Of a DNA stretch of 64,000 nucleotides, positions 16,117 to 33,210 are shown piece after piece. Position numbers and translations under genes: made by a program. Under the pieces are notes generated by a model. It did no database searches and was not told where the DNA came from. It was given only the letters and a program-made list of their open reading frames with translations. Origin of the DNA: Ferrovibrio sp. (GTDB taxonomy: Bacteria; Pseudomonadota; Alphaproteobacteria; Ferrovibrionales; Ferrovibrionaceae); contig NZ_JAHBYG010000019.1 of NCBI RefSeq assembly GCF_019636075.1, forward strand, positions 2,494 through 66,493, read 5' to 3'. The first letter of the stretch is position 1. Each line of letters begins with the position of its first letter.

Positions 16117-16125
16117 GGCCGCCTC

Positions 16126-16566: not shown

Positions 16567-16880
16567 GACCGCATGCCATATTGCTGCAGGCTGGCCTGAT
16601 CCAGCTTGGTTTCGATGCGCAGCAGATGTTCGGTCAACCGGGTTTCCACATCCTTCAGCAGGCCGATGGAGGCATAGGTCTGCGCCACTTCCAGCTTGTA
16701 ATCGGCCAGCGCGGCACGCAGGGCATGGATCGCCGTGCGGCTGTCGCGGTTGGCATTCTCCAGCGCGCGGCTGCAATCGTCGCGCTGGCGCTGTTGCAGC
16801 CAGAACAGCCCGGCCAGCGCCGGCAGTTCCACCGCCGTGAGCCACCAGGCGAGGTCGATGGTGAAAAGCGTGGCAGGCAT
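16563..16880 (-). CDS. Phage membrane protein (N-terminal TM plus coiled coil)
   Basis: WWLTAVELPALAGLFWL, then a heptad-rich helix; ATGA-coupled to the hydrolase. Confidence 0.7.
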   Translation of the reverse strand: MPATLFTIDLAWWLTAVELPALAGLFWLQQRQRDDCSRALENANRDSRTAIHALRAALADYKLEVAQTYASIGLLKDVETRLTEHLLRIETKLDQASLQQYGMRS

Positions 16881-16898
16881 GGGAATATCCTTCTCTGT

Positions 16899-18452
16899 CT
16901 AGGGGGTGAAATCGCTATCGGCATTGAAACCGCCGCCGCCCGGCCGCCAATCGCGGCGCCGTGCCCTGGTTTTCGCCTGTGCGCTCAGCCGCACCGGTTC
17001 GCTGAGCAGACAGCCGGCCACCGCATCCAGGCCATCGTCGCGGCCCTGGGAAATGCCCGGCCGCCATTCGCGCATCTCCACCAGGAAGGGCGAAGCCAGC
17101 ACGCTGTCATGGGCATGGATGGCGCCGGCCGCCAGCGGCGCATCGAAGGCGGCAAGAATGCGGGCTGCCTTGGCCTGGCGGCTGTTGCATTCGATCACCG
17201 CGGCACCCGGCCAATCCTCATCCGCTGCCAGCGCCAATTCGCGCCGCAGCAGCCCGGGCAGGAATTTGCCCAAGCCGTTGCTCTCGATCCGCACGGCGGG
17301 CAGATGCAGGTCGCGCAGAAAACCCACCACCTGGCGGCAAAGCTGGGTGGCCGCATCGGTTTCCTCCAACCGGCGCGGATCATGCTGCAGATAGGCCACG
17401 CGATGCAGGAAATACCCACCCTCGCCATCGCTGAACATCGCCGCGATCACGCTGCCATCGCCCTTGCGCGGCGTGCCATAGGCCGGATCCCACCAACACG
17501 AGGCCGAATGCATGCGGCGTGCGCCGATGCTGAGCTGCCAATGCCCGCCGGCCTGATGCAGCGCAATCTCGTCGCCATAGGGCCGCAGCAGATCGGGATT
17601 CAGCCGGCCATCTTCGGCGGCCGTGGGCTGCAACAGCATCTGGCTGGCGAATTTCGCCGGGCCGGAGCGTTTGCGGATGGTTTCGATCCGCTTGAGCGAA
17701 AACCGCTCGGGCCAGCGCGACCGCCCCTGTTCATCCACGATCGGCAATTCCAGCCGCTTGAAGCCATCGAGGAAAGGCGCATCCTCGCCGATCTCGCGGC
17801 GCGGCGTGGTGGCATAGATGCTGTAATAGGTATGCGGCGTGCCGATATAGAGCTGCATGCCGGTGGGCACCAGCACATAATCGATCTCGCCCAGGCGCTG
17901 GCGCAATTCCTCGCGCTTGGCCTGCGAGGCCGCCGTACCCGGCACTTCCACGTCGTCGCACAAAACCACATCGGCGCGGCAGCCGGTGATATTGCCGCCC
18001 AGGCCGCGCGCCAGCATGGAGGGATCGCGCAGTTCCAGCACGCGGTTGACGGTGAACTGATCCGCCGCCCATTGCTCGCGCCTGGACGGCTTGAGGCCCG
18101 CCGTGAGCGGATGGCGTTCGAGGATGCGTTTCACATTGCGCACCATCTTGCGTGCCAGGGCCTGTTCGGCGGCCAGCACCAGGATGCGCAGATTGGGATC
18201 GCGCAGCAAAAGCCAGGCGGCGAACAGACCCACCAGGCTGCTCTTGCCGGCATCGCGAAACACCAGCAGCAGCAATTCGCGGTCGCCATTGCGCCAACAT
18301 TGCTCCAGCCAGTCGAGGATGCTGAGATGCAGTACCGGCGTGGTGAGGCCCTGGCGCTGGTTCCACACATGCACGAAATCCGGCAGCGATACCGCCCGGG
18401 CCAGCTTCGGCGGCAGATTGCGCTGCGATGGCCTTGCTGCATCAGAGGTCAT
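16899..18452 (-). CDS. Terminase large subunit (T7-like)
   Basis: Walker A VFRDAGKSS, Walker B VVLCDDVE, IGTPH coupling motif, nuclease residues WWDPAYG, GDGSV, DDGLDAV. Confidence 0.92.
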   Translation of the reverse strand: MTSDAARPSQRNLPPKLARAVSLPDFVHVWNQRQGLTTPVLHLSILDWLEQCWRNGDRELLLLVFRDAGKSSLVGLFAAWLLLRDPNLRILVLAAEQALARKMVRNVKRILERHPLTAGLKPSRREQWAADQFTVNRVLELRDPSMLARGLGGNITGCRADVVLCDDVEVPGTAASQAKREELRQRLGEIDYVLVPTGMQLYIGTPHTYYSIYATTPRREIGEDAPFLDGFKRLELPIVDEQGRSRWPERFSLKRIETIRKRSGPAKFASQMLLQPTAAEDGRLNPDLLRPYGDEIALHQAGGHWQLSIGARRMHSASCWWDPAYGTPRKGDGSVIAAMFSDGEGGYFLHRVAYLQHDPRRLEETDAATQLCRQVVGFLRDLHLPAVRIESNGLGKFLPGLLRRELALAADEDWPGAAVIECNSRQAKAARILAAFDAPLAAGAIHAHDSVLASPFLVEMREWRPGISQGRDDGLDAVAGCLLSEPVRLSAQAKTRARRRDWRPGGGGFNADSDFTP

Positions 18453-18777
18453 CGGGGCCGCTTTCTTCGCTGCCGAGCGCATGCTTGCGGGCCTGGCCGA
18501 GGATATCGTGCAACGCCGCCTCGTCGATTTCAGGCGCCGCCGCTTCTTCCGCATCGGGGCCGCTGGGTTGCGGCAGCAGCCGCTTCACCGCCACGATATG
18601 CGCCAGCAAGGCACGGAAGGCGCCCTGGCGGGCCACTTCCGCCTTGTCGCCGTCATTGGCGCTGGCCGGCAGATCCTCATACACGCGCAGCACATCGTTG
18701 GCCTTGCGCAGCGTAACCGCCTGAAAGCGCCGGCCGAACCGCACGGCCTCGAGATGATCGGCATACATGGCGATCAT
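18442..18777 (-). CDS. Helical phage protein, possible terminase small subunit
   Basis: 111 aa immediately upstream of and overlapping terL; assignment is by position only. Confidence 0.55.
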   Translation of the reverse strand: MIAMYADHLEAVRFGRRFQAVTLRKANDVLRVYEDLPASANDGDKAEVARQGAFRALLAHIVAVKRLLPQPSGPDAEEAAAPEIDEAALHDILGQARKHALGSEESGPDDL

Positions 18778-18845
18778 TCCCCGGCGGTCTGCGGCTTGGG
18801 ATTCTTCACCGGCTTGTCGCCGGGCTTGATCGGAAATGCGGCCAT
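18774..18845 (-). CDS. 23-aa ORF MAAFPIKPGDKPVKNPKPQTAGE
   Basis: GGAGGAA RBS; starts 2 nt after the fibre stop and ATGA-overlaps the next gene. Confidence 0.5.
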   Translation of the reverse strand: MAAFPIKPGDKPVKNPKPQTAGE

Positions 18846-18847
18846 GA

Positions 18848-21331
18848 TCAATTCCTCCATTGCAGCCACACGCCATGCAGGCGCTGGGATTTGCCGTTGT
18901 GGGTTTCGAAGCGCCATTTCATGCTACTGCCGGATGGCTGGCCCGACAGATCCACGGTGGCGGCGAGGATGTTGGTTGCGGCATCGAAGCTGCCCTCGTC
19001 GCTAAGCGTGCCGCTACTCCAGGTGGTGCCGTTGTCGCGGCTCACCTTGATGATGGCATCGGTGTTCAGCGTCACGCCGTCCACCGGCTGATGCAGCAGC
19101 ACCACGCGGGCTTCGGCGGGCACCATCTCGGCCGCGAAGGCCGTGCTCACCATAACCACATCGGCGCCGCTGGTGATGGCATGGAATTGCAGCTCGGCCA
19201 CGCAGAAGCGCTGATCGCCGCTGCCGATATTGGAGGTCAGGTGGATGCGGTGATAGCGATAGGCCGCGCTGGTATTGATGCCCGACGTGACATCATGCAC
19301 CAGCTTGGTGGCACTGTCGGTGAGGCTGCCGGTATGCAGATCGGTCCAGCTGGAGCCGTTATTGGAGCCCTGCAGCTTGATGGTGATGGTGCCGCCATCC
19401 ACGCCGTAACCCTGGAAGCCCACATCGCTGGCCGATACCACGCGGAAGCGGGTGACCGTATGGCTGTTGCCACTGCCCCAATCCTTGCCCAGCAGCAACG
19501 GATCGGATGGCGAGGCCGAACTGTAATAGGCACCGGCGGAATAGGTTTGCGTTTCGTTGGCATCGAAAGCTGCCGCCAGGCCGCCGCCCGAGGTGGCATT
19601 GCCGATACTGCTGCCGCCGGAAATCACGCCTTCCAGGGGATTGTGATAATAATCCCCGGCGGCATCGTAGGTGGCGCCGCCGGCCGAGCCGATGCCGGTG
19701 CTGTCTTCGAATTCATCGGCGATGCCATCCACCATGTTGAGCAAAGACCAGCCGGCATCGATCTGGTCGCGCAACGTATTGATGGCGAGATTGCGTTCGA
19801 GGAATTGCAGCCGCGCTTCGAACACCGCCGGCACCGCCACCCATTCGCTGTCGTAATCGCTGCCCGAGGCCTTGGCGAGGAAATAGCCGCTAGCGCCGCC
19901 GCTGGGCACGCCCGCGCCGGCCGGACCTTGCGGGCCGGTGGCACCCGTTGCACCCATGGCGCCGGCGGCACCCGTGGGCCCGGTAGCGCCGGTGGGGCCT
20001 TGCGGACCGGTAGCCCCGGTGGGGCCCTGCACGCCGGCCGGGCCTTGCGGGCCGGTGGCGCCGGTGGCTCCCGTGGCACCCGTGGCACCTGCGGACCCGG
20101 TGGCGCCGGTGGCGCCGGTATCGCCCTTGGCGGCCAGCAGCGCCCAATAGGTGGGCGAGCTTTCCGGCGCATGATCCGTGCCGGCCTGCAAGGCGATATA
20201 GGCCGCGCCATTGCGGCCCACCGCATCATCCACCGCATAGGCCGTGGCCGACGACCAGGCGCCCTGCCATTGCAGGCCCTTGTCGCCCTGCACGCCTTGA
20301 ATGCCCTGCACACCTTGCGGGCCCTGCTCGCCCTGTTCGCCCTGGGGGCCGATGCCGCCCTGCGGACCGGTGGGCCCCTGTTCGCCGCGCCCGAACGGCA
20401 CGCCATCGGACCAATCGCCTGCCGTGCCGGAGAGCTTGAAATACAGATAGCCGGTATCGGTGGCCAGATAGCTGAAGCCATCGGCTTCCGCGTCGTGGCT
20501 GGCACGGCCGGCATACAGACCCACTTCATCGGGGGTGAAGCTCTGGCCGGCAATGCCCTGCGGCCCCTGAATGCCCTGGATGCCCTGGGCCCCGCCCGGA
20601 CCCTGAATGCCTTGCGATCCCTGCGGCCCCGTGGCCCCGGCCGGACCCGGCACGCCTTGCGGCCCCGCCGCGCCCTGCGCGCCCTGCGGACCGGTGGCGC
20701 CGGTGGCACCTTGCACGCCTTGCGGACCTTGCGCGCCGGTAGGCCCGGTGGCGCCCTGCGATCCTTGCGGACCCTGCGCGCCTTGCGGGCCGGTGGGACC
20801 GGCAGGCCCCTGGGCACCCTGCGGCCCCGGCGGGCCCTGGGGCACATCGCCCTCGCCATAGAAAGCCGGCCGGCCATCGGCATCGAAGCCCAGCAGCTTG
20901 CCGGCACGGTCGCCATAGGGCAGCGCCAGATCCGCCGCCGGCACCGTCAATCCCGCTTCATGCAGGCGCAGGGCGCGGCTGGCCGAATCATCCACCTGCT
21001 GCAACAGCAACGCGATGCGGTCGAGTTCCTCGTTCAGCGCGCGAGCGCGGAATTCGCCGCCCTCCACGAAATCGGTTTCGCGCTTGATCGCCATGCGGCG
21101 CGCCGCCGTGATGCGGCTGCCGGAGGCCGGCGCGGTGGCGAATTGCAGCACCGCCCCGGCGCTCTGGTTGAGATTGCCCACGCTGAAACCGATGCCGCTG
21201 GGCAGGGCGTCGATCCAGACCAGCAGGTCGGCGGCGGCCAATACGGGAAACGGCAGGCTGAATTCGGTCTGCAAGCCGTTGGCGATGAATTGCGCACGCG
21301 GCGGCGCGGCGGAAACGATCAGGTCGGTCAT
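18848..21331 (-). CDS. Tail fibre with T7 gp17-like anchor, collagen Gly-X-Y blocks, CBM-like motif and discoidin-like domain
   Basis: N-terminal [29 protein letters not shown]; three Gly-X-Y runs; [27 protein letters not shown]; [20 protein letters not shown]. Confidence 0.88.
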
Positions 21332-21346
21332 GGGGGATCCTTTCGC

Positions 21347-21808
21347 TTACGATGTCCGTGTCGGATTCGTTTGGCTGCGCTCATAGGCATTCAGCCCGGT
21401 GCGGACCAAAGAGAGCAGGCCATTGGTGGTGGCTTCGCGCTGGCGCAGCAGGTTGATGCGGCCGGCGGCATCGAAATTGGCAAGCTGGTCGTTATAGCTG
21501 CTGGCCAGCCGGCTGCGTTCCTGCTCGCTTTCCGCCAGCAGGTTGTTCATCAGCGCACCGGCCGAGCCATCGCCGGAAACCCCCGATGCCGCGAAAGCCG
21601 CGCGCTGCGCCGCCTGGCTGCGTGCCAGACGATCCTGACGCTCTTTCTCGGCATCGGCATATTGGCGATCCAAAGCCTGCTTCTGCTGCGCCTGGGCGGA
21701 AGCCTGGGCCTTGGCCTGAGCGCTGGAATTCGCCATGCCTGCAACGGTGCTGACGGCACTGCTTGCCAGCGTAGCCCATAACAACGGTGCTGCTGAAATT
21801 GCGGCCAT
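21347..21808 (-). CDS. Internal virion protein-like (Ala/Gln-rich)
   Basis: SQAAQRAAFAASGVSGDGSA motif; located after tail tubular B, like T7 gp13/14. Confidence 0.6.
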   Translation of the reverse strand: MAAISAAPLLWATLASSAVSTVAGMANSSAQAKAQASAQAQQKQALDRQYADAEKERQDRLARSQAAQRAAFAASGVSGDGSAGALMNNLLAESEQERSRLASSYNDQLANFDAAGRINLLRQREATTNGLLSLVRTGLNAYERSQTNPTRTS

Positions 21809-23730
21809 TATTCGGTTCCTTTCAGTTCGGTGTAGACGGAAAGCAGGGTGAAGGGTTGCGGCGCCGCCTGGTCGATGCGCCAGAGCGGTTTATCGACACC
21901 GCGCACCCAGCCCAGGCCGCGCATTTCGCGGTCGCCGGTGAACGGCACCGGGGCTGCATCCAGCGCGCCGGTTTCGCCGAAGCGGGTGAAGGCCAGGGCA
22001 CGCGGGCCATTGCCCATATCCACCAGCAAAGCCGCCGTATCCTGCAGGCGGAACACCGCGCGGATCAGCCGCACCGGGCCGGATTGCGCGATGGCATCGC
22101 CGCCGATCTCGGCCGGCAGCGGCTCGATCTCATGCTTGAACGGCAGGCCCACTTCGATGCTGCTGGCCGCGCTGGCCAGGCTGAGCATGCCATCGACGAT
22201 GCCGTAGCTGCCGCGATCGATGCCATCGGCGCGCACCCGCACGCTGCGGCCTTCCAGATGCTCCAGCCCGCCCCAGACGGTTTTCGGATCATTGCTGCTG
22301 CCGCGCCAGGCGGCATCGCAGAAACAGGCTTCATCCAGGCATTCGAGATACAGACCGTTCTGGCGCTGCACCAGCACATAGATGCTGTCGTTCAGCACCG
22401 CCACGGCACGGAAGGCGCCGTCGGTCTGCAATCTGGTCCAGGCCAGGATCTGCTGGCTGCGGAAATTGGTCTGCACCGCCAGGCTGCCATCGCCCATCGG
22501 CAGCAGGATCAGCTTGCGCGTGGCATCGTAATCCATGCCGCGCGGATCGTTGAACAGATGCGGCACCAGCAAAGCCATATCCTCGGCGGAATAGGCCTGG
22601 TCGAGATCGGTATAAAGGAACTGCCGCAAACCGCGCCCATCGCGGGCGATGAACATGGTGGCGCCATCCACATGGCAGGGCGGAATGCTGCGTTCGATCT
22701 GCGAGCCGATGCGGGTCTGGCGATCGACACGCAGCTTGGCCGGCGTGAGCGGCTCGCCGGTGATCATCCATTCGGCGCCGGCGGTGAACAATTGCAGATG
22801 CCGCCCGGCCACCACGGCGCGGATCGCTTCCACCTGATCGGTGAGCAGGGAGAATTCGATCGACTCGTCGTCCAGCGCGGTGCCGAGATTGAAATTGGTG
22901 ATATCGGAGGTTTTCGACATCCAGACCCGGTTGGGCAAATCGCGCGAGCCGGCGAAGATCAGCCGCTCCTGGAACAGCGTCACCGCCACCGGCCAGCCGC
23001 GATGATCGGAAAACGCCTGCTCCTCCCAATCGCGGGTGGACGCGGCATCCACCAGGGATTCCTTGGTGGTGGCGGTGGCCTGGGTGGCCGAGCTGATGCC
23101 GGTGATTTCCACTTCCTTCTTCTTGATGCGGAAGCGGGTGCCGATATGCGCGTCGGTGAACAGATCCTCGGATGCGGTGAGCGTGATCGTGCCGCTGGTG
23201 GAAGACGGCGTCAGGGTCACGTCTTCCTTGGCGAATTTGAAACTCGGCACGCGCTTGATGCCGCTGCCATCCTCGATCTTGAAAGCGAAGCCGGCGATAT
23301 CCCAATTGTCATGCGCGGTGCGGGTGAGGCGCTGCGGCGGAATATCCGGATGGCAGATGAACAGCGTATCGGCGCTCTGCACCCAGCTGAGCTGGCGCAC
23401 CTGATCGGCGGACCAGGGCGCGGCCACGATGGCGGCCAGGGTTTCCTGGTGGAACACCCGGATCTCGCCTTCGATGAACAGCAGCAGATAGGTCTGCTCG
23501 GTGTTGAAGCGGAAGGTGACCAGCCGCGCGCCCTCATCCTCGGAATCGGGCAGCATGGCCACATGGCGCAGGCCGGGCCGTCGGGTGACGCCTCCGGTGG
23601 GCCGGATCAGCACGTTGCGCAGCTTGGCGGCGCCGTTGGCATAAGCCGACAGATCGGGCCGGCCGAGCAATTCGGCGGCGATTTCGCCGGCAGTGAAATT
23701 GTTCTTGAACGCGCGCAGCCTGGCCATCAC
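21808..23730 (-). CDS. Tail tubular protein B (T7 gp12-like nozzle)
   Basis: KNNFTAGEI..GRPDL, GGVTRRPG, F..EQTYLL, GWPVAVTLFQERLIFAG, WMSKT. Confidence 0.88.
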   Translation of the reverse strand: MMARLRAFKNNFTAGEIAAELLGRPDLSAYANGAAKLRNVLIRPTGGVTRRPGLRHVAMLPDSEDEGARLVTFRFNTEQTYLLLFIEGEIRVFHQETLAAIVAAPWSADQVRQLSWVQSADTLFICHPDIPPQRLTRTAHDNWDIAGFAFKIEDGSGIKRVPSFKFAKEDVTLTPSSTSGTITLTASEDLFTDAHIGTRFRIKKKEVEITGISSATQATATTKESLVDAASTRDWEEQAFSDHRGWPVAVTLFQERLIFAGSRDLPNRVWMSKTSDITNFNLGTALDDESIEFSLLTDQVEAIRAVVAGRHLQLFTAGAEWMITGEPLTPAKLRVDRQTRIGSQIERSIPPCHVDGATMFIARDGRGLRQFLYTDLDQAYSAEDMALLVPHLFNDPRGMDYDATRKLILLPMGDGSLAVQTNFRSQQILAWTRLQTDGAFRAVAVLNDSIYVLVQRQNGLYLECLDEACFCDAAWRGSSNDPKTVWGGLEHLEGRSVRVRADGIDRGSYGIVDGMLSLASAASSIEVGLPFKHEIEPLPAEIGGDAIAQSGPVRLIRAVFRLQDTAALLVDMGNGPRALAFTRFGETGALDAAPVPFTGDREMRGLGWVRGVDKPLWRIDQAAPQPFTLLSVYTELKGTE

Positions 23731-24296
23731 AAACGCGCCTCCACCAGAGTGAAATCCTCGATGCGGCCGGGCTCGCCCTGCTGCGCGTCCACTGCCTTGG
23801 CGCGGCGGAATTCATCCTCCGACAGCTTGAACAGCAATTCCGCGCGGCTGGTGCTCTCGGTCAGCGGCAGGCAGAATTCCGCCGCCAGGCGCGCGCACAG
23901 CGCCTGGTCGAAGAAAGCCGGAAACGAGGCTTCGTCGGGCCGCAGGATATAGGTCAGCGTGATCTGCTCGGCATTGGCATGCAGGTTGCCGGCCACGATG
24001 CGATAGCCGATGCCGCGGCCGCGTTCGGCGATACCGGCCGACAATGCGCGCAAGAAATCCGGCGGCAGCTGGAAGGCATGGGAGAAATCGGCGCGCGGCG
24101 GCGCGACCAGGCGCGCCAGGTCGGTCTGCGCGGTGGCGAAACGCCAGGGATAGGCAGACAGCAGCGCATCGCGGGTGGCCGGATAGACATGGCGCGCCAC
24201 TTCGGCTTCCACGCTGCCATCATCGAAAGCGCTGATCGGGCGGGCGGCCAGCGCCACCAGGGCCCGGCTGCAAAGCTGAACGGCGTTGAGCGCCAT
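23727..24296 (-). CDS. Tail tubular protein A (T7 gp11-like adaptor)
   Basis: AVQLCSRAL..PISAFDDGSVEA, LLSAYPWRFA, FQLPPDFLR, CARLAAEFCLPLT. Confidence 0.88.
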   Translation of the reverse strand: MALNAVQLCSRALVALAARPISAFDDGSVEAEVARHVYPATRDALLSAYPWRFATAQTDLARLVAPPRADFSHAFQLPPDFLRALSAGIAERGRGIGYRIVAGNLHANAEQITLTYILRPDEASFPAFFDQALCARLAAEFCLPLTESTSRAELLFKLSEDEFRRAKAVDAQQGEPGRIEDFTLVEARL

Positions 24297-24494
24297 GGCT
24301 GGAATCCTTTCATTGTCGTGCGGGCAAGCTCCCCGGGTGGGGTGCCCCGGCGGCGGGGAAAACCGCCGGGACACCCAGGCCGGCGCGGGGGAGCACGCGC
24401 CGGCCGGGCCGCCATGACACGCATCCCGGGTTTCGGTGATGGCTGCGCGCGGCCCAAAACGCGCGCAGCGGTCAGGCGGGCGAAGGCAACCGGA

Positions 24495-24764
24495 TCAATC
24501 GGTATCCGTGCCGCCGAACGCGGTGAGATCGGCGAGATCCACCACGCCGCCGCTATTGGAGGCGACCACGAAGATGCCATGCGCCGGCGAGCCGCCGGTG
24601 GCGCAGTTGGCGAGGATGAAGTCGCCGACCCGCAGCATCTCCACGGCCGCGTTGAAATAGCCGCTGGTATCCACGGTGGCCGCCGTGTCGGTGGTGGTGT
24701 AATGCCAGAGCGTGAAGCCGTTGGCGTAGCCGAGCACGCTCAGATTCTTGGCCTGGTAAGCCAT
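24495..24764 (-). CDS. Small beta-rich virion protein (possible capsid decoration)
   Basis: 89 aa directly after the capsid gene, with an AAGGAG RBS; GFTLWHYTT..VDTSGYFN. Confidence 0.6.
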   Translation of the reverse strand: MAYQAKNLSVLGYANGFTLWHYTTTDTAATVDTSGYFNAAVEMLRVGDFILANCATGGSPAHGIFVVASNSGGVVDLADLTAFGGTDTD

Positions 24765-24807
24765 GACGATGTCTCCTTCTTGCGGATGTTGGGGAGGGGT
24801 GGCGGGA

Positions 24808-25626
24808 TCAGCTTTCGAGGCAGCGGAGCGTCACCACGCCGGTGCCGTCGATCAGCGCGGCGCCCTGACTCATCATGTTGTTGATGAACAGGGCGGCGCG
24901 GTCGCCATGCCAGGAGATGTCGGATTCCACATCCTTGCCCGAGGCATGACCGAGCGCGGTCTTGTGATACCAATGGCAGAACCGCACATTGCCGCTGAGC
25001 GTGAGGCCGCTATGGGCGATCCACAGCGTGCCCAGCCATTGCTTGGCCTGGGCGCCCTTCCAGGGCAGGTTGTCGTCGCCCACGTAATCCGCATCGGCGA
25101 ATTCCGGGATGTCGAGCAACTGGCTCCACTGGCGCCAGCCGATCACCGCGGTGCGCTGGCCATCGTCGGGCACATCGGCGCCGCCGAGCAGTTCGAACGC
25201 GGTGAGGATCTTCGCCTTGGTGAGACCATCGGCATTGCCGCCGGCATAGTTGGTGGAACTGTCCAGCGCCTTGATGATCAGCTCGTCGGTCTTGCGGCCC
25301 AGCGCATAGGCGCCGGCATTCACGATCACGTCGCGCTCGCTATGGCCGACCTTGATCTCGTCGAGCGCATCGAGCCATTCGCCGGCATAATAATCCTGCA
25401 GGGCGCATTCCACCGAGCCGTGATCCACATTCATCACCGGCACCTTGCCGTGCCGTGCCTTGGTGGAGGCGCTGCCCTTGCCGACCTTCTGGAAGGTGGT
25501 GGAAGCGCCCTTGATGTCGCCCTTCGAGCGCACCGTGGGGCGCAGCTTGGAGCCGAGCCGCTGATAGGCATTGTGCACGTCCTTTTCGAACTGCCGCACA
25601 AAGCCGGTTTCGATATTGGGAGTCAT
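24808..25626 (-). CDS. Major capsid protein (T7/BPP-1-like, 272 aa)
   Basis: FVRQFEKDVHNAYQRLGSKLR, DYYAGEWLDALDE, AYALGRKTDELII; AAAGGA RBS. Confidence 0.88.
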   Translation of the reverse strand: MTPNIETGFVRQFEKDVHNAYQRLGSKLRPTVRSKGDIKGASTTFQKVGKGSASTKARHGKVPVMNVDHGSVECALQDYYAGEWLDALDEIKVGHSERDVIVNAGAYALGRKTDELIIKALDSSTNYAGGNADGLTKAKILTAFELLGGADVPDDGQRTAVIGWRQWSQLLDIPEFADADYVGDDNLPWKGAQAKQWLGTLWIAHSGLTLSGNVRFCHWYHKTALGHASGKDVESDISWHGDRAALFINNMMSQGAALIDGTGVVTLRCLES

Positions 25627-25803
25627 GTTGGGGTGTCCTTTTCGAGTTGCGGGAATGCGTTGGGTGCACTTCGCCCATCGCGTTCTCCGCAATAGCGGGC
25701 GCGTCTGGAGAGGCATTCGGTTCGGGGAGCCGCCCGGCCCGGAGAGGCGCGCGGTGGCCTGGCGCCGGGTTATCGGAACGGAAATGCAAAAGCGGGAGAG
25801 GCT

Positions 25804-25845
25804 GCCCGATATCCGGCCGGTTCATGCGCCGGCCGGATATCGGGC
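25804..25845. repeat. Perfect 17-bp inverted repeat between scaffold and capsid genes
   Basis: GCCCGATATCCGGCCGG-8 nt-CCGGCCGGATATCGGGC. Confidence 0.95.
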
Positions 25846-25858
25846 CTGGGGCGCGCGA

Positions 25859-26614
25859 TCAGCCCGGATACAGCCTCCGGAAACCCTGGGTAACCTTGTC
25901 GAGGATTTCGGGGTCGCGACGCTTCCAGTAGCGCGGGTCTTGCATCAGCTTGACCAGCTGTTCCTCGGTCAGCGCCTCGTCCGAGCCGCTGCCTTCGGCA
26001 CGCCGCAGCGTCGGCTCGCCGGATTTCATCATGGCTTCCAGCGCGATCACGCCCTGGGCATTGCTGGCCAGCGCCGCGAAGGTGCTTTCCGGCAGATTGG
26101 CGCGGCCCCAGATTTCCAGGCTGCGGGCGACTTCCCGGTAGCGCGCCGGGCCGCCGAAATGCTGTTCCAGCTTTTCGCGTTCGCTGCGCGCGCTGAAGCC
26201 CGATACCAGATCGTCGATCTGCGGCATCACATGATCGCAGGCCAGGTCGTAGACCAGCTGGGCCTGGGCGGGCGTGAAGCCGGCCGCATGCAGCTTGGCA
26301 TTCACCTCGGGATCCACATGCAGTTGCGGATGGCGCAGCTGGATGCTGTAGCCATCGGGCGCATCGGGCACGCCCAGCGCACGATGGAAACCGCGCAGGC
26401 CATCGGCGTCGCCCTCGGCGGGCAGCCGCACCATGCCGGCCATGCGGCGCTCCAGCGACAGGTAGGATTTCAGCAGCTTGTCCACCTGGATCGCGCCGGT
26501 CTGCGGGTCGCGGAATTTCGCCGGCACGGCATCAATGCCTTCGGCGGCGAGGCCATCGGCAACCGGCGGAATGGCCGCCGGCTGCGCTTCATCGGTAAGC
26601 AGGTTCTGGGTCAT
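25859..26614 (-). CDS. Capsid scaffold/assembly protein
   Basis: VPAKFRDPQ..LLKSYLSLE, LGVPDAPDGY, LMQDPRYWK; located between portal and capsid. Confidence 0.8.
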   Translation of the reverse strand: MTQNLLTDEAQPAAIPPVADGLAAEGIDAVPAKFRDPQTGAIQVDKLLKSYLSLERRMAGMVRLPAEGDADGLRGFHRALGVPDAPDGYSIQLRHPQLHVDPEVNAKLHAAGFTPAQAQLVYDLACDHVMPQIDDLVSGFSARSEREKLEQHFGGPARYREVARSLEIWGRANLPESTFAALASNAQGVIALEAMMKSGEPTLRRAEGSGSDEALTEEQLVKLMQDPRYWKRRDPEILDKVTQGFRRLYPG

Positions 26615-26655
26615 CGAGGTCGGTCCTTTCGGTTGCGTGATCATGTTATGTTCTT

Positions 26656-26901
26656 TCAGTCTTCCGCGATCCGGGCGAGTTGCGTGCCATCGCGGCCGCG
26701 TTGCATCAGCGCCTCGATATGGGCCAGCAGATGGCGCTGGCCTTCGAGATGCCGCAACTCGGCTTCCGGGCAATCCGGCGCCAGCCGGCGTTCCACGGTG
26801 ATGCGCCGTAAATGCCCGAGCAGCCTTTCGCCCTGCGGCGTGCCGAGACAGCGCGCGGCATCCAGCGCCAGTTGATCGGTATCCACCGGCCGCGCGGTCA
26901 T
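26656..26901 (-). CDS. Small phage protein (Bbp19-like position)
   Basis: LGTPQGERLLGHLR..LEGQRHLL; ATGA-coupled to the portal. Confidence 0.7.
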   Translation of the reverse strand: MTARPVDTDQLALDAARCLGTPQGERLLGHLRRITVERRLAPDCPEAELRHLEGQRHLLAHIEALMQRGRDGTQLARIAED

Positions 26902-28607
26902 GCCGCACCTTCCATCATTTGCTGCAAGGCCGGCGCAGCCTGCTGCAGCATCGGCGCCAGCGCCGCCATCGGATCGGCCCCGATCTGCTGCTGCTGCTGC
27001 TGTTGTTGTGGCGGCTGAGGATCGGCGGGTTGTTCGCCGGCTTCGAGCAGGAATTCGCCGGGCACGCCGAGCGTGCGGCCGAGCCAGCGCGCCACGGCGG
27101 TCTTGTCCACCACCGCATCGGCGGCGGGGCCCAGCGCCTTGATCTGCTCCAGCCACATCAGGATGCCCTGGATGTCGGCCTGGCTTTGCACGCGCGCCAG
27201 CGGCGATTGATACGCCAGCTTCACCTCGCGGCCATCCAGGGCGAAATCCGGGATCTCGCCGCGCCGCTGCAGAATCTCCACCACGCGGTCGATCAGCGGG
27301 GTGAGGAATTCGCCTTGCAGCCGGCCGAACACCGCACCCAGCAACCGGGCCATTTCGGCGGCGCGTTCCAGCACTTCGGTGGCGCTCATCTTCGGTGCCG
27401 CCACCTGGCCCAACCGATCCACCAGCAGCGCATGGCGGATGCGGCCGCGCAGATCGTCGAGCACCAGTTGCGAGATATCGAAACGGCCCGGCGCGGCCAG
27501 CGGCGTAAGGCCCGACGAACCCACCGCCTTGGGAATGATGGCGCCCGGCACCAGCTTCACATTGGCGGGATTGAGCACGCCATCGTCATCGGCCTGCCAG
27601 ATCCCGGTGACGGCGATGGAGGCATTCTTCAACACCAGTTCCACCACCTTGTTGGCGGTCTTGATATCGGGCAATGCCTTCATCACCGGCGAACGGCCAT
27701 ACACATCGCCGGCGGCCTTGATCCAGCGGAAGGCGATGAACGGCGAGCGTTGGAAACGGCCGCGTTCCAAAAGCCCGCCTTGCAGCAGGCCGCCTTGCAT
27801 CAGACTATCGGCTTCGGCGCCATCCATGTCGTCTTCCAGCAGCGCGATGAAATCATAGCCGGCGGCGGACCTGCCGCCGCCTTCGCGCGGCAACACGCAT
27901 TCCAGCACGCCGATGCGGGTTTCGCCGTCGCTCTGCTTGCCCAGCCTGGCCACCACGGCGGCCGCTCTGGGATAACGCGCCAGCAATTGCTGCGGGCTGA
28001 GCCGGCGCTGCCGGAAAGCCACATCCAGCCGGCCGCTGGGGCCTTCTTCCAACACCACATCCTGGATCGGCACCGCCGTGAAACGCAGCACCGAGGGCGC
28101 ACCGAGTTCGGCTTCTTCCACCGCCAGGCAGGCGGTGCCGGCGGTTACCAGATCGAGATAGCATTGATGCGCCGCCACAGCGAAATCGGAGCGGTCGATA
28201 TGATTCTGCGCCCGGGCCGAAGCGCGATCCAGCAGGCTGGCGACCTCGCCCTGCATATCCGGCGCAATCTCCTCGCCCGGCTGAAAAGCGAACCAGCGCG
28301 ACCAGGGCGGCGTCAGCTGCGCCAGCAAGCTGGCAGCCAGTTGATCCACCGCATCGGCGGCCGTGCCATCGAACAGCGTGTCGGCGCGGCGGCCCGGCTG
28401 GTTATGGCTGCCCTGGCGACCGGACGATCCCACGCCATGCTGTTCGGAAGACAGCGGCAAGGTGTAGTCGAAGCAATCGCGCCAGCGGGTTTCCCAGGCC
28501 GAACGCGCCGCCTTGGCCTTGCGGAACCGCTCGCGCAGGTCGGTCGCCTGCGGATCGGCAATGTTGGCATCGGACATCGGGGGAAGGGTTTGCATGATCG
28601 GCCTCAT
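26898..28607 (-). CDS. Portal / head-tail connector (T7 gp8 family)
   Basis: LFDGTA..LTPPWSRWF, YGRSPVMKALPDIKTAN, MSATEVLER, YQSPLARVQ. The start may be 28577-28607. Confidence 0.93.
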   Translation of the reverse strand: MRPIMQTLPPMSDANIADPQATDLRERFRKAKAARSAWETRWRDCFDYTLPLSSEQHGVGSSGRQGSHNQPGRRADTLFDGTAADAVDQLAASLLAQLTPPWSRWFAFQPGEEIAPDMQGEVASLLDRASARAQNHIDRSDFAVAAHQCYLDLVTAGTACLAVEEAELGAPSVLRFTAVPIQDVVLEEGPSGRLDVAFRQRRLSPQQLLARYPRAAAVVARLGKQSDGETRIGVLECVLPREGGGRSAAGYDFIALLEDDMDGAEADSLMQGGLLQGGLLERGRFQRSPFIAFRWIKAAGDVYGRSPVMKALPDIKTANKVVELVLKNASIAVTGIWQADDDGVLNPANVKLVPGAIIPKAVGSSGLTPLAAPGRFDISQLVLDDLRGRIRHALLVDRLGQVAAPKMSATEVLERAAEMARLLGAVFGRLQGEFLTPLIDRVVEILQRRGEIPDFALDGREVKLAYQSPLARVQSQADIQGILMWLEQIKALGPAADAVVDKTAVARWLGRTLGVPGEFLLEAGEQPADPQPPQQQQQQQQIGADPMAALAPMLQQAAPALQQMMEGAA

Positions 28608-28816
28608 TCGCCCAGCAGCGTCTTACGGGCTTCGGCGCTGCCACCGTCGTTGCCGCCGGAGACGCCGCGATAGGAGGTGGCGATGGTTTCGCCCTGGGCG
28701 CGGCGGCGGCGTTCCCGCGCGATACGCTGCGCCTCTTCGTTGGGATCCTCGGGCTGCACCACCGGGGCTGCCGGAATGGGTGCCGGCGGCGAGGGGCTGC
28801 TGAAAATTCCGCCCAT
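28604..28816 (-). CDS. Small pre-portal phage protein (70 aa, ends KTLLGE)
   Basis: GGAGG RBS before MGGIFSSPSPP; its stop overlaps the portal start; first gene after the promoter. Confidence 0.75.
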   Translation of the reverse strand: MGGIFSSPSPPAPIPAAPVVQPEDPNEEAQRIARERRRRAQGETIATSYRGVSGGNDGGSAEARKTLLGE

Positions 28817-29353
28817 GATCTGCCTCCATCTTTCATGCCAGGCACGCAGCCGGCTGTTATTGATCCGCCAGGGCTGCCTTCCACCGGCTTGCAACCGGGA
28901 AGACAGATTTTGTTCCTGATATGTACTTTTATAATTGGATCGAATTCCTTCGTCAAGGGAAAACTCTCTTAGATAGCAAAAAAGTTTCCATGGTGTTCTA
29001 ATTGTATAATCCTGTAATCCTATAAGACGCTTCACCACCTCCACGCAGGTGAAAGCCACGGGCGGCGCCGGGCGTTCCGGCGGCATGCGCGCCTCCACTG
29101 TCAGCGCCATCCATCCGGCGCGGCGAAACGCAGCGGCCAGATCGGCTTGGCTGGGAAAATCGACCAGGTCGAGAACCAGCCGTTGCGACAACGGGTCCAG
29201 CGCGATCCAGCCGGCCCGGCTCAAACCGTAAGCAAAACAATGGCGGAATCCCGGCTTCAACAGACGTAAGTATTTGATCCTATTTTGTTCTGAAAACACC
29301 ACCACAACCCGCCCAATGCCCTGGTTTGCATAAGGCAGATCGGCCCATTTCAT
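28604..29353 (-). CDS. Putative permuted papain-like (His...Cys) protein reading in frame into the pre-portal protein
   Basis: VVVFS..LKPGFRHCF, W...DP, FTCVEVVKRLIG, TPWKLF; no stop before the 28816 start. Confidence 0.6.
   Translation of the reverse strand: MKWADLPYANQGIGRVVVVFSEQNRIKYLRLLKPGFRHCFAYGLSRAGWIALDPLSQRLVLDLVDFPSQADLAAAFRRAGWMALTVEARMPPERPAPPVAFTCVEVVKRLIGLQDYTIRTPWKLFCYLREFSLDEGIRSNYKSTYQEQNLSSRLQAGGRQPWRINNSRLRAWHERWRQIMGGIFSSPSPPAPIPAAPVVQPEDPNEEAQRIARERRRRAQGETIATSYRGVSGGNDGGSAEARKTLLGE
28912..28926. promoter_or_regulatory. Alphaproteobacterial LexA (SOS) box
   Basis: (T)GTTC-CTGATAT-GTAC, one mismatch to GTTC-N7-GTTC, 1 nt from the -10 hexamer. Confidence 0.65.
28928..28956 (-). 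promoter_or_regulatory. Near-consensus sigma70 promoter of the structural operon
   Basis: TTGACG-N17-TATAAA in an AT-rich patch, about 110 nt upstream of the first RBS. Confidence 0.75.
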
Positions 29354-29578
29354 CTTAATGGGATATTTAGATGGTATTGAATCACCTAATAAGGGTATCA
29401 TTTGACATGGATGTGGCATTTTCGGTGCAGTGGGGAGGTTTGCGTTTAACGGGGAATTGCGATCAGTCTGCTACTTTTTTTATATGTTGTAATATTAACC
29501 TGTATTGTTCTCATGTCAAACACTATTTTGGTGCATATTCCTGTAGCCAAAACGGCTACTCTGTGGGACGATGTTCCC

Positions 29579-30343
29579 ATGTTAACCCATAAAGCGATTT
29601 GGACCGCGATCGATGCCCTGGCCGAAAAGCATGGTCTGACTGCCTCCGGCCTGGCCCGCAAGGCGGGCCTCGATCCCACCACCTTCAACCGCAGCAAACG
29701 CGCGGCGCGGGATGGCAAACAGCGCTGGCCATCCACCGAGAGCATTGCCAAGGTGGTGGAAGCCACCGGCACCACCATGGCCGAATTCCTGGAAGTGCTG
29801 CTGGATAGCAGCGCCGGCGGCCGTGGCTCCGCCTTCCGCATCCCCACCGTGGATTTCCTCTCGCTCAATGGGCCGGAACAGCAACCCGGCCAGCCGGCAT
29901 TGCCGGGCGACCCGGAGCGGCTGCGGGCATTGTTCGATCCCGCCGGCCTGCCGATCCGCCAGATCGATCCAGCCAAACTTGATGCGGCCAAACTTGATAC
30001 AGCCAAGCTTGAAACAGCACGCAGTGCGGAATCCATCGCCTGGGATCTGCGGCCGTTTCCCGGGCTGCATGACGACCGGAGCTATGCCCTGGAGCTGAAT
30101 ACCCATGCCTTCGAGCCGCTCTATCGCCTGAACGCGGTGCTGATATTGTCGCCGCGCGCCGAAATCCGGCGCGGCGACCGCCTGCTGGCCGCCACCGTGG
30201 CCGGCGAATTCCTGCTCTGCGCCCTGGTGCGCAAAACCCTTACCCGGGTTGAAGTGTCGGATCTGAACAAGCCCGACCAGGAGCGCAGCTTCGATACATC
30301 GGAAATCGCCTGGCTGCACCGCATCGTCTGGGCCACGCAATAA
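29579..30343 (+). CDS. cI-like HTH repressor with degenerate S24 domain (COG2932 type)
   Basis: IWTAIDALAEKHGLTASGLARKAGLDPTTFNRSKR..RWPSTESIAKV; C-terminal YALE..EPLYR..IRRGDR..RIVWATQ. Confidence 0.9.
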   Translation: MLTHKAIWTAIDALAEKHGLTASGLARKAGLDPTTFNRSKRAARDGKQRWPSTESIAKVVEATGTTMAEFLEVLLDSSAGGRGSAFRIPTVDFLSLNGPEQQPGQPALPGDPERLRALFDPAGLPIRQIDPAKLDAAKLDTAKLETARSAESIAWDLRPFPGLHDDRSYALELNTHAFEPLYRLNAVLILSPRAEIRRGDRLLAATVAGEFLLCALVRKTLTRVEVSDLNKPDQERSFDTSEIAWLHRIVWATQ

Positions 30344-30348
30344 CCGCC

Positions 30349-33210
30349 ATGGCAGACCGCCCCATGCTCGATAGCGCATTGGCGCGTCTGCCCGTGTTGG
30401 TGAATGACGGCGTCGCCGCCATCTGGTGCGATCCAGGCCCGGATGGCGCGCTGGTGCCCGAACGGCTGGAGGCGGAAGCCGCCGGCCGCCGCGCCCGGGC
30501 CACGCCGCCGATGCTGGTGCATGGCCGTGCCACCGCCGCGCGGCTGGGGCTGAATCCGTTTCCGGCCTTCGACCTGCTGGACCTGTTCGCCTTCTGCCGG
30601 CCGGCGCGCTTCTGCCTGCCCACCGCGCGCGGCCTGCTGGAAGCATTGCAGATGCCGCTGCCGCAGGATGCGCTCGCGCTTGCCGCCAGCCTGCCGCGCG
30701 CAGCGCGCCGGCTGCTCGACGACCTCGGCCGCCTGGATGGCCGCGAGAAACGCCGCGCCTTGCGCATTGCCGGCGTGATGCAGAATGCCGGCTGGCCCTG
30801 GGCGCTGTATTGCATCGAGGCCATGGCGTCACGGGATGGCGGCGAGGCGATGCCGGCGCGCATCGGCCTGGATGTGTGGAACGAATTGCCGGAATGGGCG
30901 GATTTCGCGCCGCCGCCGCCGCCCGACACGCAATCGGTCAGCCCCGCCGAGGCGCGCGAACGTTTGCAGCGCCTGCTTGGGCCGCAAGCCGAAGACCGCG
31001 ATGCCCAGGCCGATTATGCCGCCATCACCGCCCAGGCCTTTGCACCGCGCGCCGAAATCGGCATGCCCGAACTGGTGTTGAGCGAAGCCGGCACCGGCAT
31101 CGGCAAGACCCTGGGCTATATCGCGCCGGCCAGCGTATGGGCGGAAAAGAATGGCGGCAGCGTGTGGCTGTCTACCTATACCAAGAATCTGCAGCGGCAA
31201 TTGGATCGCGAACTCGACAGGCTGTATCCCAATCCAACCGACAAGGCCACCAAGGTGGTGGTGCGCAAGGGCCGCGAAAATTACATCTGCCTGCTCAATC
31301 TGGAAGATGCCGCAGGCTATGCCGCCAGCAACGCCGCCGCGCGGCCGGCCGACAGCATCGCGCTGGGCCTGGTGGCGCGCTGGGTGCAGGCAACGCGCGA
31401 CGGCGATATTGCCGGCGGCGATTTCCCGGCCTGGATCGCCGATCTGCATGGCCGTGGCCGCACGCTGGGCCTCACCGATCAGCGCGGCGAATGCATCCAT
31501 GCCGCCTGCCCGCATTATCGCAAATGCTTCATCGAGCGCGGCCTGCGCCGGGCGCGGCGCGCCGAGATGGTGATCGCCAACCATGCCCTGGTGATGATCA
31601 ATGCCGCGCAAGGTGCGCAGGACGACGACGACGGCAACCGTCCGCTGCGCTATGTGTTCGACGAAGGCCATCACCTGTTCGATGCCGCCGATGGCGCTTT
31701 CGCCGCCCATCTCACCGGCCGCGAGGGCATGGAATTGCGGCGCTGGCTGCGTGGCCCGGAAGGCCCGCGCCGTAGTCGCGCCCGGGGCCTGGCCGCCCGC
31801 ATCGGCGATCTGGTGATGCATGACGAAGCCGGGCGCCGCGCGCTGGATGCGTTGGTGGAAGCCGGCCGCGCGCTGCCCGGCGAAGGCTGGCTGACCCGGC
31901 TGGCGGAAGGCAATGCATCCAGGGAAGAGAAAGCCTGCGAAGGCGAAGCCTTTCTGGCGCAGGCGCGGCTGATGATCCTGGCCCGCAGCCCGCAACCCGA
32001 CAGCCCCTATGGCCTGGAATGTCCGACGCGCGAAGCACCCACCGCGCTGCTGGATGCGGCGCTGGCCTTCGCCAATGCGATCAGCCGCATGCTGTCGCCC
32101 GCGGCCCAGCTTGCCAAGGCGCTGGCCGCCAAGCTGGACGACGATACCGCCGAACTGGATTCCGCCCAGCGCGGCCGGCTGGAAGGCGCGCTGCGCGGCC
32201 TGGCGCGCCGCAAACAAACGTTGGAAGCCTGGCGCAGCATGCTGCTGGCCTTGCAGACCGAAACGCCTGCTGATTTCGTCGATTGGTTCGCGCTGGAACG
32301 CGAGGCCGGCCATGATGCCGATCTCGGCCTGTATCGCCATTATCTCGATCCCATGTTGCCGTTTGCCGATGCGGTGATGAAGCCGGCCCATGGTCTGGCG
32401 ATCACGTCTGCCACCTTACGCGATCTCGATGCGAAGCAGAGCGAAGCCGCGCCCGAGCAAAGCTGGCACAGCGCCGAGATCCGCTCCGGTGCGCGCCATC
32501 TGCCGCTGCCGGCGCGGCGCGCGAGTTTTCCCTCGCCGTTCGATTATGCCGGTCGCACGCGCATCTTCGTGGTCACCGATGTGCGGCGCGACGACATGAA
32601 CCAGGTCGCTGCCGCCTATCGTGAATTATTCATGGCTGCCGGTGGCGGCGGATTGGGATTGTTCACCGCGATCTTCCGGTTGCGCGCGGTACAGAAACGC
32701 ATCGTCAAGCCGCTGGCCGACCAGGGCATCGCGCTTTATGCCCAACATGTCGATCCGCTGGATAACGCCACCCTGGTGGATATCTTCCGCGCCGAGGAGC
32801 ATTCCTGCCTGCTGGGCACCGATGCCATGCGCGATGGCGTGGATGTGCCGGGCAGCGCGCTGCGGCTGGCGGTGTTCGACCGCGTGCCCTGGCCGCGCCC
32901 GGATCTGTTGCACAAGGCGCGCCGCAACGCCTTCGGTGGCCAGGCTTACGACGATCTGCTCACCCGCCTGAAGCTGAAGCAGGCTTTCGGCCGGCTGCTG
33001 CGCCGCGCCGATGATTACGGCGTGTTCGTGGTGCTGGATGCGCAATTGCCTTCGCGCCTGCTCTCGGCCTTTCCGGCGCAAGTGGATGTGCGCCGCATCG
33101 GCATCAAGGAAGCCGTGAGCGAAACCCGCGCGTTTCTGCAGGGCATGCGGGGAGCGAATGTCAGCGGTAAACTTCGCGGCGATGGGCAACCCGCAGAATC
33201 AATATCGTGA
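30349..33210 (+). CDS. DinG/XPD-family Fe-S ATP-dependent DNA helicase
   Basis: EAGTGIGKT, KGRENYICL, CIHAACPHYRKCF, ANHAL, FDEGHHL, ITSATL, DGVDVPG, KQAFGRLLR. Confidence 0.93.
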   Translation: MADRPMLDSALARLPVLVNDGVAAIWCDPGPDGALVPERLEAEAAGRRARATPPMLVHGRATAARLGLNPFPAFDLLDLFAFCRPARFCLPTARGLLEALQMPLPQDALALAASLPRAARRLLDDLGRLDGREKRRALRIAGVMQNAGWPWALYCIEAMASRDGGEAMPARIGLDVWNELPEWADFAPPPPPDTQSVSPAEARERLQRLLGPQAEDRDAQADYAAITAQAFAPRAEIGMPELVLSEAGTGIGKTLGYIAPASVWAEKNGGSVWLSTYTKNLQRQLDRELDRLYPNPTDKATKVVVRKGRENYICLLNLEDAAGYAASNAAARPADSIALGLVARWVQATRDGDIAGGDFPAWIADLHGRGRTLGLTDQRGECIHAACPHYRKCFIERGLRRARRAEMVIANHALVMINAAQGAQDDDDGNRPLRYVFDEGHHLFDAADGAFAAHLTGREGMELRRWLRGPEGPRRSRARGLAARIGDLVMHDEAGRRALDALVEAGRALPGEGWLTRLAEGNASREEKACEGEAFLAQARLMILARSPQPDSPYGLECPTREAPTALLDAALAFANAISRMLSPAAQLAKALAAKLDDDTAELDSAQRGRLEGALRGLARRKQTLEAWRSMLLALQTETPADFVDWFALEREAGHDADLGLYRHYLDPMLPFADAVMKPAHGLAITSATLRDLDAKQSEAAPEQSWHSAEIRSGARHLPLPARRASFPSPFDYAGRTRIFVVTDVRRDDMNQVAAAYRELFMAAGGGGLGLFTAIFRLRAVQKRIVKPLADQGIALYAQHVDPLDNATLVDIFRAEEHSCLLGTDAMRDGVDVPGSALRLAVFDRVPWPRPDLLHKARRNAFGGQAYDDLLTRLKLKQAFGRLLRRADDYGVFVVLDAQLPSRLLSAFPAQVDVRRIGIKEAVSETRAFLQGMRGANVSGKLRGDGQPAESIS

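Follow-up and report, generated by a model that had tools for sequence, protein, structure and literature searches.

The question raised by this locus is what a repressor of the lambda cI type controls, and how it could be released, when its S24 autoprotease domain lacks the residues needed for self-cleavage. The protein in question is the product of a rogA-like gene located in a 64,000-nt stretch of DNA from Ferrovibrio sp. (hereafter the window, whose coordinates are used throughout), and the gene diverges from a cluster of T7/BPP-1-like structural and lysis genes. The answer favored here, with a probability of about 0.66, is that a RogA-family repressor with a dead autoprotease silences its own operon and the adjacent cluster. 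Loci and proteins used for comparison bear numbers with the prefixes L and P, respectively, and protein residues are counted from the start MLTHK. The gene and its product are laid out as follows.

29579 to 30343, plus strand: rogA-like gene, 254 amino acids, with a helix-turn-helix (HTH) domain, a linker and a pseudo-S24 domain.
29579 to 29812, plus strand: XRE-type HTH domain, residues 1–78, with weak Pfam HTH matches, fold matches to ClgR and C.Esp1396I, and invariant columns.
29813 to 30037, plus strand: hypervariable linker, residues 79–153, delimited from alignments, with predicted local distance difference test (pLDDT) scores of 64–82.
30038 to 30340, plus strand: pseudo-S24 (LexA/cI-like) C-terminal domain, with Ala177 at the Ser position and Cys214 at the Lys position.

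The open reading frame (ORF) is intact in the window and in all the relatives of the repressor compared, and its MLTHK start matches the family N-terminus MLTH(K). A longer reading from 29513 (22 codons upstream), adopted in the database entries P0002 and P0123, was ruled out by the family N-terminus and by an in-frame TAA that stops the extension (29513–29578) in the Ferrovibrio relatives. Since the nucleotides there are still conserved in those relatives, 29579 was taken as the start and the upstream block as non-coding and regulatory. Pfam gave only sub-threshold matches, to an XRE-like HTH and, over profile positions 29–112, to Peptidase_S24 (PF00717; 14.8 bits versus a gathering threshold of 23.3). 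The original prediction, made from the DNA letters, had described the product as a cI-like repressor, and this description holds for what is a two-domain cI/LexA-like protein divergent from a phage-like operon.

The register of the C-terminal domain was set by alignments in which E. coli LexA and lambda cI served as anchors, and by comparing the family profile with lambda cI PDB sequences. The family consensus reads IPLIG-AQAG at the cleavage site, YALE-SGDSM-PVYRDGD around the Ser and GEVM-K-QL around the Lys, all in register. In the window repressor, the expected Ser-motif segment is ALELNTHAFEPLYR (residues 170–183, 30086–30127) and the expected Lys region is GEFLLCALVRK (residues 209–219). 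Ala177 (30107–30109) falls in the column of LexA S119 and cI S149, with NTHAF where the family has SGDSM, and Cys214 (30218–30220) falls in the column of LexA K156 and cI K192. The former cleavage-site strand, RIPTVDFLSLNG, sits in the linker, with Leu96-Asn97 (29864–29869), within LSLN(G), in the column of the A^G site (AQAG in the family consensus, A84-G85 in LexA). In the four closest relatives (64–73% identical), the Ser motif reads NTEAF, NTSAY, NTDRF or NTDKY, and the Lys column is occupied by G, A, S or C. Given 6,669 homologues with the GDSM/K/AQAG consensus in register, the residue replacements are far beyond chance.

These alignments place Ala at the nucleophile column and Cys at the general-base column, as anticipated from the claims that the Ser motif has no Ser and that the autoprotease looks catalytically dead; the alignment and structure-prediction check proposed at that time gave no Ser-Lys dyad in register. 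The claim that no Ala-Gly site is evident stood for the homologous site, which is Leu96-Asn97, while it did not stand for the protein as a whole, where AG dipeptides occur at A79-G80, A122-G123 and A208-G209. The second of them lies within an FDxAG motif that catalytically intact members carry in addition to AQAG. Because Ser, Lys and Ala-Gly are all missing, that is, the three elements of S24 self-cleavage, RecA*-stimulated autoproteolysis of the window repressor, which had been predicted to be impossible, is judged very unlikely.

The fold of the domain seems to have outlived its chemistry. An AlphaFold2 model obtained with an 85-sequence alignment had a mean pLDDT of 88, reaching 94–98 over the C-terminal domain. 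Foldseek searches of the PDB returned, with probability 1.0, full-length lambda cI (3bdn), Thermotoga LexA (3k2z) and the lambda C-terminal fragment (2ho0), which includes the cleavage-site region; 186 CI (2fjr, 7jvt) was matched too, and the N-terminal domain matched the XRE-type regulators ClgR and C.Esp1396I. As the LexA/cI fold is retained, the C-terminal domain is to be considered a pseudo-protease rather than a different domain, the beta-fold being kept presumably for dimerisation. Like LexA and lambda cI, its top structural matches, the window repressor has an N-terminal DNA-binding domain, a linker with a cleavage-site strand and a beta-rich C-terminal domain. Unlike them it has neither the Ser-Lys dyad nor the Ala-Gly site, and its N-terminal domain is XRE-type as in cI, whereas that of LexA is a winged helix.

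The closest experimentally studied relative is RogA of Caulobacter (CCNA_00080), a LexA-like protein without key catalytic residues that has been shown experimentally to be a repressor (PMC9632790), and that acts in trans on gafYZ, the activators of a gene transfer agent (GTA) (PMC9632790, PMC11150451). The RogA gene was recovered from a Caulobacter vibrioides genome by means of published primer sequences, and the comparison of the product with the window repressor, which had been suggested in the original prediction, placed both proteins in the same family (BLASTP, 37% identity over the full length, E 9e-45, residues 2–254 vs 4–213). They share the architecture of HTH plus S24-like domain, an MxxLxH..IW N-terminus, a GLDPTxFNxSKR..RWPSTES core and an AWxxRIVWxSQ C-terminus, and the catalytic Ser and Lys are gone in both: the motif of RogA reads GDDL (Ser to Asp), with Arg in place of Lys, where the window repressor has Ala177 and Cys214. 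RogA differs in keeping AQAG and a Pfam-significant S24 domain (64 bits), while the window repressor lost the site, scores 14.8 bits and has in addition a polymorphic pentapeptide repeat in the linker. Another difference is that RogA controls, via gafYZ, an RcGTA-type (HK97-like siphovirus) cluster, whereas the window gene is divergent from a T7/BPP-1-like one. The RogA-type pseudo-S24 repressor is already known, and the window protein is a more extreme form of it.

The 6,669 homologues (E<=1e-3) were found in a collection of 5.8 billion proteins; they are nearly all alphaproteobacterial, measure about 210 amino acids and go by the name 'HTH transcriptional regulator / S24 family peptidase'. 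The cleavage site, the Ser and the Lys are retained in most of the family. Ser and/or Lys were absent in 32 of the 120 best database matches, a sample biased towards relatives of the query, in 17 of 90 sequences from a metagenome scan plus reference loci, and in 6 of 80 IMG/VR loci (8 if L091 and L092, scored alongside, are counted). The IMG/VR counts given here and below refer to the 80 loci retrieved (L095–L174) out of 141. Protease-dead forms are, on these alignments, a recurrent minority, the loss having happened repeatedly. The Pfam S24 scores run from 88 and 81 bits in the intact proteins P0079 and P0023, through 64 in Caulobacter RogA, 39 in Ferrovibrio P0006 and 20 in P0003, down to 14.8 in the window, and by this measure the Ferrovibrio-like clade of the window repressor is the most decayed of the family.

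In a rough neighbour-joining tree without support values, all the Lys-less relatives of the window repressor formed one clade, whose sister was a Ferrovibrio-like clade that is catalytically intact. Within the Lys-less clade, the states of cleavage site, Ser and Lys columns were AQAG/Ser/Arg, AS or AA/Ser/Arg, and AS/Thr/Arg, with none left on the long branch of the window subclade. On these clade states, the simplest reading suggests that Lys was lost first (K to R) and that AG and Ser decayed afterwards. The position of the clade, together with the different replacements in RogA, indicates that the catalytic losses in the Caulobacter and window lineages were probably independent. When the repressor was compared by tblastn with 50,697 phage records, no match was found at E<=1e-3, so that, as far as seen, it does not appear to be a phage cI in origin.

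The linker has a peculiarity of its own, which had been reported earlier as a 15-bp triplication and was recovered by Tandem Repeats Finder.

29966 to 30018, plus strand: tandem repeat encoding AKLDA/AKLDT/AKLET, period 15 bp, 3.5 copies, 84% matches.

In otherwise 100% identical proteins, the AKLDx units number two (P0122, WP_374631391.1, Ferrovibrio sp.), three (the window, P0121) or four (P0123). These differences between assemblies point to ongoing slippage in the linker, and a variable repeat would fit a linker freed from presenting a scissile bond. The ratio of nonsynonymous to synonymous substitution rates (dN/dS), computed against the 70%-identical orthologue of L002, came to 0.01 in the HTH domain, to 0.44 in the linker and to 0.37 in the C-terminal domain, values that come from one close pair with partly saturated dS. 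The HTH, already described as well conserved in the original prediction, is indeed nearly invariant. The DNA-binding domain thus seems to be under very strong constraint, and there is a weak indication that selection on the C-terminal domain is more relaxed though still purifying. The intact pairs give no sound dN/dS baseline because dS is saturated in most of them.

The regulatory region lies between the repressor gene and the cluster, and the helicase gene lies on the other side of the repressor gene.

29420 to 29578: divergent regulatory region, 159 bp, a conserved non-coding block.
29492 to 29519, minus strand: leftward sigma-70-like promoter TTGACA-16-TAATAT (consensus scan, 10 of 12 matches), pointing into the cluster.
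29508 to 29513: degenerate TTCTCA, adjoining the leftward -35.
29538 to 29543: TTCCTG, at position -41, where the family motif is TTCCTA.
29544 to 29549 and 29567 to 29572, plus strand: putative -35 (TAGCCA) and -10 (GACGAT) of the repressor gene, a tentative promoter reading.
29574 to 29578: TTCCC, directly 5' of the ATG, with no Shine-Dalgarno sequence.
30349 to 33210, plus strand: DinG/YoaA-family helicase, 953 amino acids (Pfam Helicase_C_2, partial matches to NCBIfam YoaA/DinG).

The upstream regions of the family are otherwise diverged, and TTCCTA is the commonest hexamer in them: of 83 distinct regions of 130 nt, 51 contain it, versus 2.3 expected from shuffles (maximum 8). Thirteen loci have it at a constant -41, another group has it as TTCCTA-N15-TAGGAA palindromes, and in Caulobacter it lies at -61. 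Where a cluster is associated with the gene, one more TTCCTA sits directly beside TGTCAA, the complement of the leftward -35 TTGACA, which is conserved in related loci. TTCCTA is thus a candidate RogA operator half-site. From the arrangement in the window, the mRNA of the rogA-like gene is probably leaderless and may be autoregulated, with an operator region shared with the cluster promoter; lambda cI expressed from PRM offers the precedent of a leaderless, autoregulated mRNA.

The helicase gene starts 5 bp 3' of the repressor gene, and is probably co-transcribed with it. Both genes are adjacent also in L002, L005, L007 and L091–L094, while elsewhere the helicase is 3–5 kb off. Its N-terminal extension of about 200 amino acids matches no domain. 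To its right lies rplU-rpmA-obg-proB-proA.

A mechanism can be proposed on this basis. The repressor would dimerise through the retained S24-like fold, and its invariant XRE-type HTH would most likely bind TTCC(T/C)-type half-sites across the 159-bp region, which flank the repressor's own core promoter and adjoin the -35 of the divergent promoter. Binding would shut off its own operon (the rogA-like gene plus the DinG-like helicase) and the 13.7-kb particle-and-lysis cluster. Derepression, if any, would take place by another route: the host might degrade the repressor, an antirepressor or some other signal might act on it, or the switching might be stochastic.

The possible connection with the SOS response was considered from the side of LexA. 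GTTC-N7-GTTC is the established alphaproteobacterial LexA box. The regulatory region contains neither GTTC-N7-GTTC nor GAAC-N7-GAAC, perfect or with one mismatch, and the 400 bp upstream of the repressor gene contain neither an alphaproteobacterial LexA box nor an E. coli-type one (CTGT-N8-ACAG). The only perfect LexA box in the whole window, at 42383, is inside a dehydrogenase gene, and there is no box near any small gene of the window. The suggestion of the original prediction that control had been handed to host LexA is therefore not upheld. In about half of the related, cluster-associated loci, on the other hand, a perfect box occurs at a fixed distance, -91 to -111 from the ATG of the rogA-like gene, over the predicted start of the leftward transcript (e.g., L011, L012, L017, L025, L037, L069, L105 and L112–L116). 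Among the metagenome loci it is present in 7 of the 23 associated with a cluster versus 3 of the remaining 61 (Fisher p = 0.0035); the IMG/VR count is about 36 of 80. The elements with a box mostly have an intact S24 domain; among cluster-associated loci the box accompanies 2 of 12 protease-dead proteins versus 43 of 89 intact ones, a trend only, as phylogeny was not corrected for. As the LexA box coexists with a self-cleavable repressor, the typical element looks doubly SOS-wired. With neither self-cleavage nor a LexA box, the window lineage appears to have lost both routes and to have left the SOS circuit altogether, uncoupling the cluster from it.

The cluster itself and the genes in it that matter most to the argument are these.

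15688 to 29419, minus strand: T7/BPP-1-like structural and lysis cluster, 13.7 kb (PHROGs, Pfam).
Gene order within it: gA (H-C/C family), small virion protein, portal, Bbp19/scaffold, major capsid, 89-amino-acid protein, tail tubular A, nozzle/tubular B, gp14-like protein, collagen-like fibre, TerL, SleB-type lysin, GTA_holin_3TM holin.
28964 to 29353, minus strand: gA, first gene of the cluster, from a family of about 121 proteins in Azospirillum, Terasakiella and Methylocystaceae.
15688 to 16116, minus strand: holin (Pfam GTA_holin_3TM, PF11351, E 1.5e-16), of a family named for GTA release.

Every sizeable called gene in 15688–29419 was scanned against Pfam and/or PHROGs, with no integrase, replication or lysogeny gene among them. 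The portal was unequivocal (Pfam Head-tail_con, E 1e-133), and the nearest phage relative of the capsid is a pelagiphage protein with 45% identity. The G+C content of the cluster, about 65%, is like that of the flanks. Beyond the cluster lie DUF952, a short ORF without identification (a 2',5'-RNA-ligase-like gene is found there in L007) and pyrD. Some details of individual genes can be recorded here: the portal has a run of eight Gln near its C-terminus (about 26997–27020, minus strand); the tail fibre (18848–21331, minus strand) has collagen-like Gly-X-Y repeats, with a local G+C content of 73%; and, in the window, gA continues in frame into the small gene that follows it (phrog_831-like, about 28604–28816). 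The gA protein has invariant GFRHCF and FTCVE..KR motifs, belongs to no Pfam family and gave an AlphaFold2 model with a pLDDT of 89.

Ferrovibrio genomes (L005, L091, L092) have the identical arrangement and gene order, and so do the closest relatives, L002 and L003. The slot formed by DUF952, the cluster and the rogA-like gene, in this order, is kept in Ferrovibrio, Azospirillum, Magnetospirillum, many Rhodospirillales, and metagenome and IMG/VR loci. The divergent arrangement with a T7-like cluster was seen in about 78 of the 80 IMG/VR loci, and in about 20 of 80 loci of the metagenome scan, where about 40 had pyrD/DUF952 directly adjacent. The 141 predicted IMG/VR 'proviruses' carrying a rogA-like gene are in many cases 12–19 kb long, and most of the retrieved contigs stop at that gene or shortly beyond it. 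Across loci, the identity is 52–84% for the portal, about 50–59% for PyrD and 50–92% for DinG. Decay takes place in the same slot: L007 keeps only holin and lysin fragments, in L093 portal and scaffold directly adjoin the holin, and the holin is the last remnant where the cluster decayed (L007, L093, L094). A partial set of cluster genes occurs in Magnetospirillum (L008) and none in Variibacter (L009). In Azospirillum brasilense (L090:13599–16471, GCA_007828645.1), host genes encoding PAS-GGDEF-EAL and PRC-barrel proteins lie between scaffold and capsid. The idea that loss of the dyad tracks the presence of the cluster failed broadly, as most cluster-associated proteins are intact, including the Ferrovibrio-like ones of L095–L100; only among the closest relatives do Lys-less proteins (P0003, P0006, P0012, P0015) go with full clusters and intact ones (P0021, P0023, P0025) with decayed ones.

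The reading that the repressor silences the cluster has to be weighed against some facts that speak against it. Many lineages without the cluster still have a family member at this chromosomal locus, and Caulobacter RogA acts on a distant promoter, that of gafYZ (PMC9632790), so adjacency is no proof that the cluster is the target or the sole target. The operators are assigned by motif, and the window itself has TTCCTG at -41 and a degenerate TTCTCA by the leftward -35. The loss of cleavage is something we infer for the window repressor from its residues, the tree lacks support values, and the partly saturated dS of one pair gives little weight to a relaxed C-terminal domain. It could be argued from this that the main targets are its own operon, with the DinG-like helicase, or distant GTA activators of the gafYZ type, the T7-like cluster being a historical neighbour under separate control. 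The locus with pyrD-DUF952 on one side of rogA and rplU-rpmA-obg on the other occurs without the cluster in those roughly 40 metagenome loci, the helicase gene is syntenic and only 5 bp downstream, and RogA does act in trans in Caulobacter (PMC9632790, PMC11150451). Yet the divergent promoters use one common 159-bp region, many related loci have a TTCCTA right beside the leftward -35 (TGTCAA), most of the retrieved IMG/VR elements that carry the gene stop at it or shortly beyond, and no gafYZ or RcGTA-type genes were seen in the window, which was searched for them in part only. All in all, this alternative seems unlikely.

The other two alternatives concern the fate of the repressor rather than its targets. 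An indirect removal by DNA damage, whether by trans cleavage by another S24 protein or a host protease, by sequestration with RecA*, or by a LexA-controlled antirepressor, is made conceivable by the resemblance to 186 CI, which has a related C-terminal domain and is not cleavable through RecA, and by relatives that are SOS-wired through LexA boxes and intact S24 domains. Phage 186 is induced via the LexA-controlled antirepressor Tum. It would be tempting to see a trans-acting protease in gA, a small protein whose invariant His-Cys and Cys hint at a thiol enzyme, perhaps a peptidase, but as a protease it was rejected: its model had no significant structural match in the PDB (best Foldseek E 0.83) and it has no Pfam family. 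Neither the scissile Ala-Gly nor the strand context around it is left, and, at variance with the 186 system, neither a LexA box nor a candidate LexA-controlled antirepressor was found around the repressor gene, which makes this explanation quite improbable. Still harder to sustain, and very close to dismissal, is the notion that the gene is a decaying relic without regulatory role. The fast evolution of linker and C-terminal domain (dN/dS 0.37–0.44), the sub-threshold Pfam S24 score and the unstable repeat would agree with decay; a dN/dS of 0.01 in the N-terminal domain, an ORF intact in all relatives, a C-terminal domain modeled with a pLDDT of 94–98 and a conserved upstream regulatory block would not. 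Silencing by the protease-dead repressor of its own operon and of the neighbouring cluster is consequently preferred.

What the cluster is can be approached by comparison with known GTAs. It behaves like a long-resident, vertically inherited, domesticated element whose constant neighbour is the rogA-like gene: it has structural, packaging and lysis genes only, and occupies a fixed locus where it diverges in step with host genes. Its likeness to RcGTA and CcGTA extends to the GTA_holin_3TM holin, the fixed site across genera, the host-like G+C content and the host genes inserted in Azospirillum. It differs from them in morphotype, T7/BPP-1-like versus HK97-like siphovirus, and in being known here from its genes alone. 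[quoted passage not shown] Mitomycin-inducible particles with about 10 kb of DNA have been reported in older work on Azospirillum lipoferum, where they were attributed to an RcGTA-like region (PMC3899980). A search of sequencing runs for the window sequence found metagenomic DNA runs only, with no isolate or transcript data. The cluster might be a podovirus-type GTA not described before, or else a particle system inducible by SOS.

A broader history can be offered, quite tentatively and with the odds somewhat against it. At the outset, the RogA family would have provided a repressor dedicated to an ancient, vertically inherited T7/BPP-1-like element some 14 kb long, which would be a second, podovirus-type GTA or an SOS-inducible particle system of Alphaproteobacteria, and in many Rhodospirillales it may do so still. 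In most lineages the element would be SOS-wired via a self-cleaving RogA plus a LexA box. The protease would have been inactivated in several lineages, including that of the window and, independently, that of Caulobacter, taking a lethal element off SOS, and the repressor would subsequently have been recruited to the RcGTA-type system of Caulobacter.

Concerning what this means for the family, RogA is the master off-switch of the Caulobacter GTA. The intact relatives and the repeated dead forms provide natural pairs of active and inactive proteins with which to probe what the pseudo-protease domain senses, and the TTCCTA half-site is a testable prediction for RogA binding across Alphaproteobacteria. 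The T7-like particle-and-lysis cluster, as the conserved partner at the home locus of the gene, hints at the origin of RogA, and culturable bacteria, Azospirillum brasilense among them, may harbour a podovirus-type GTA.

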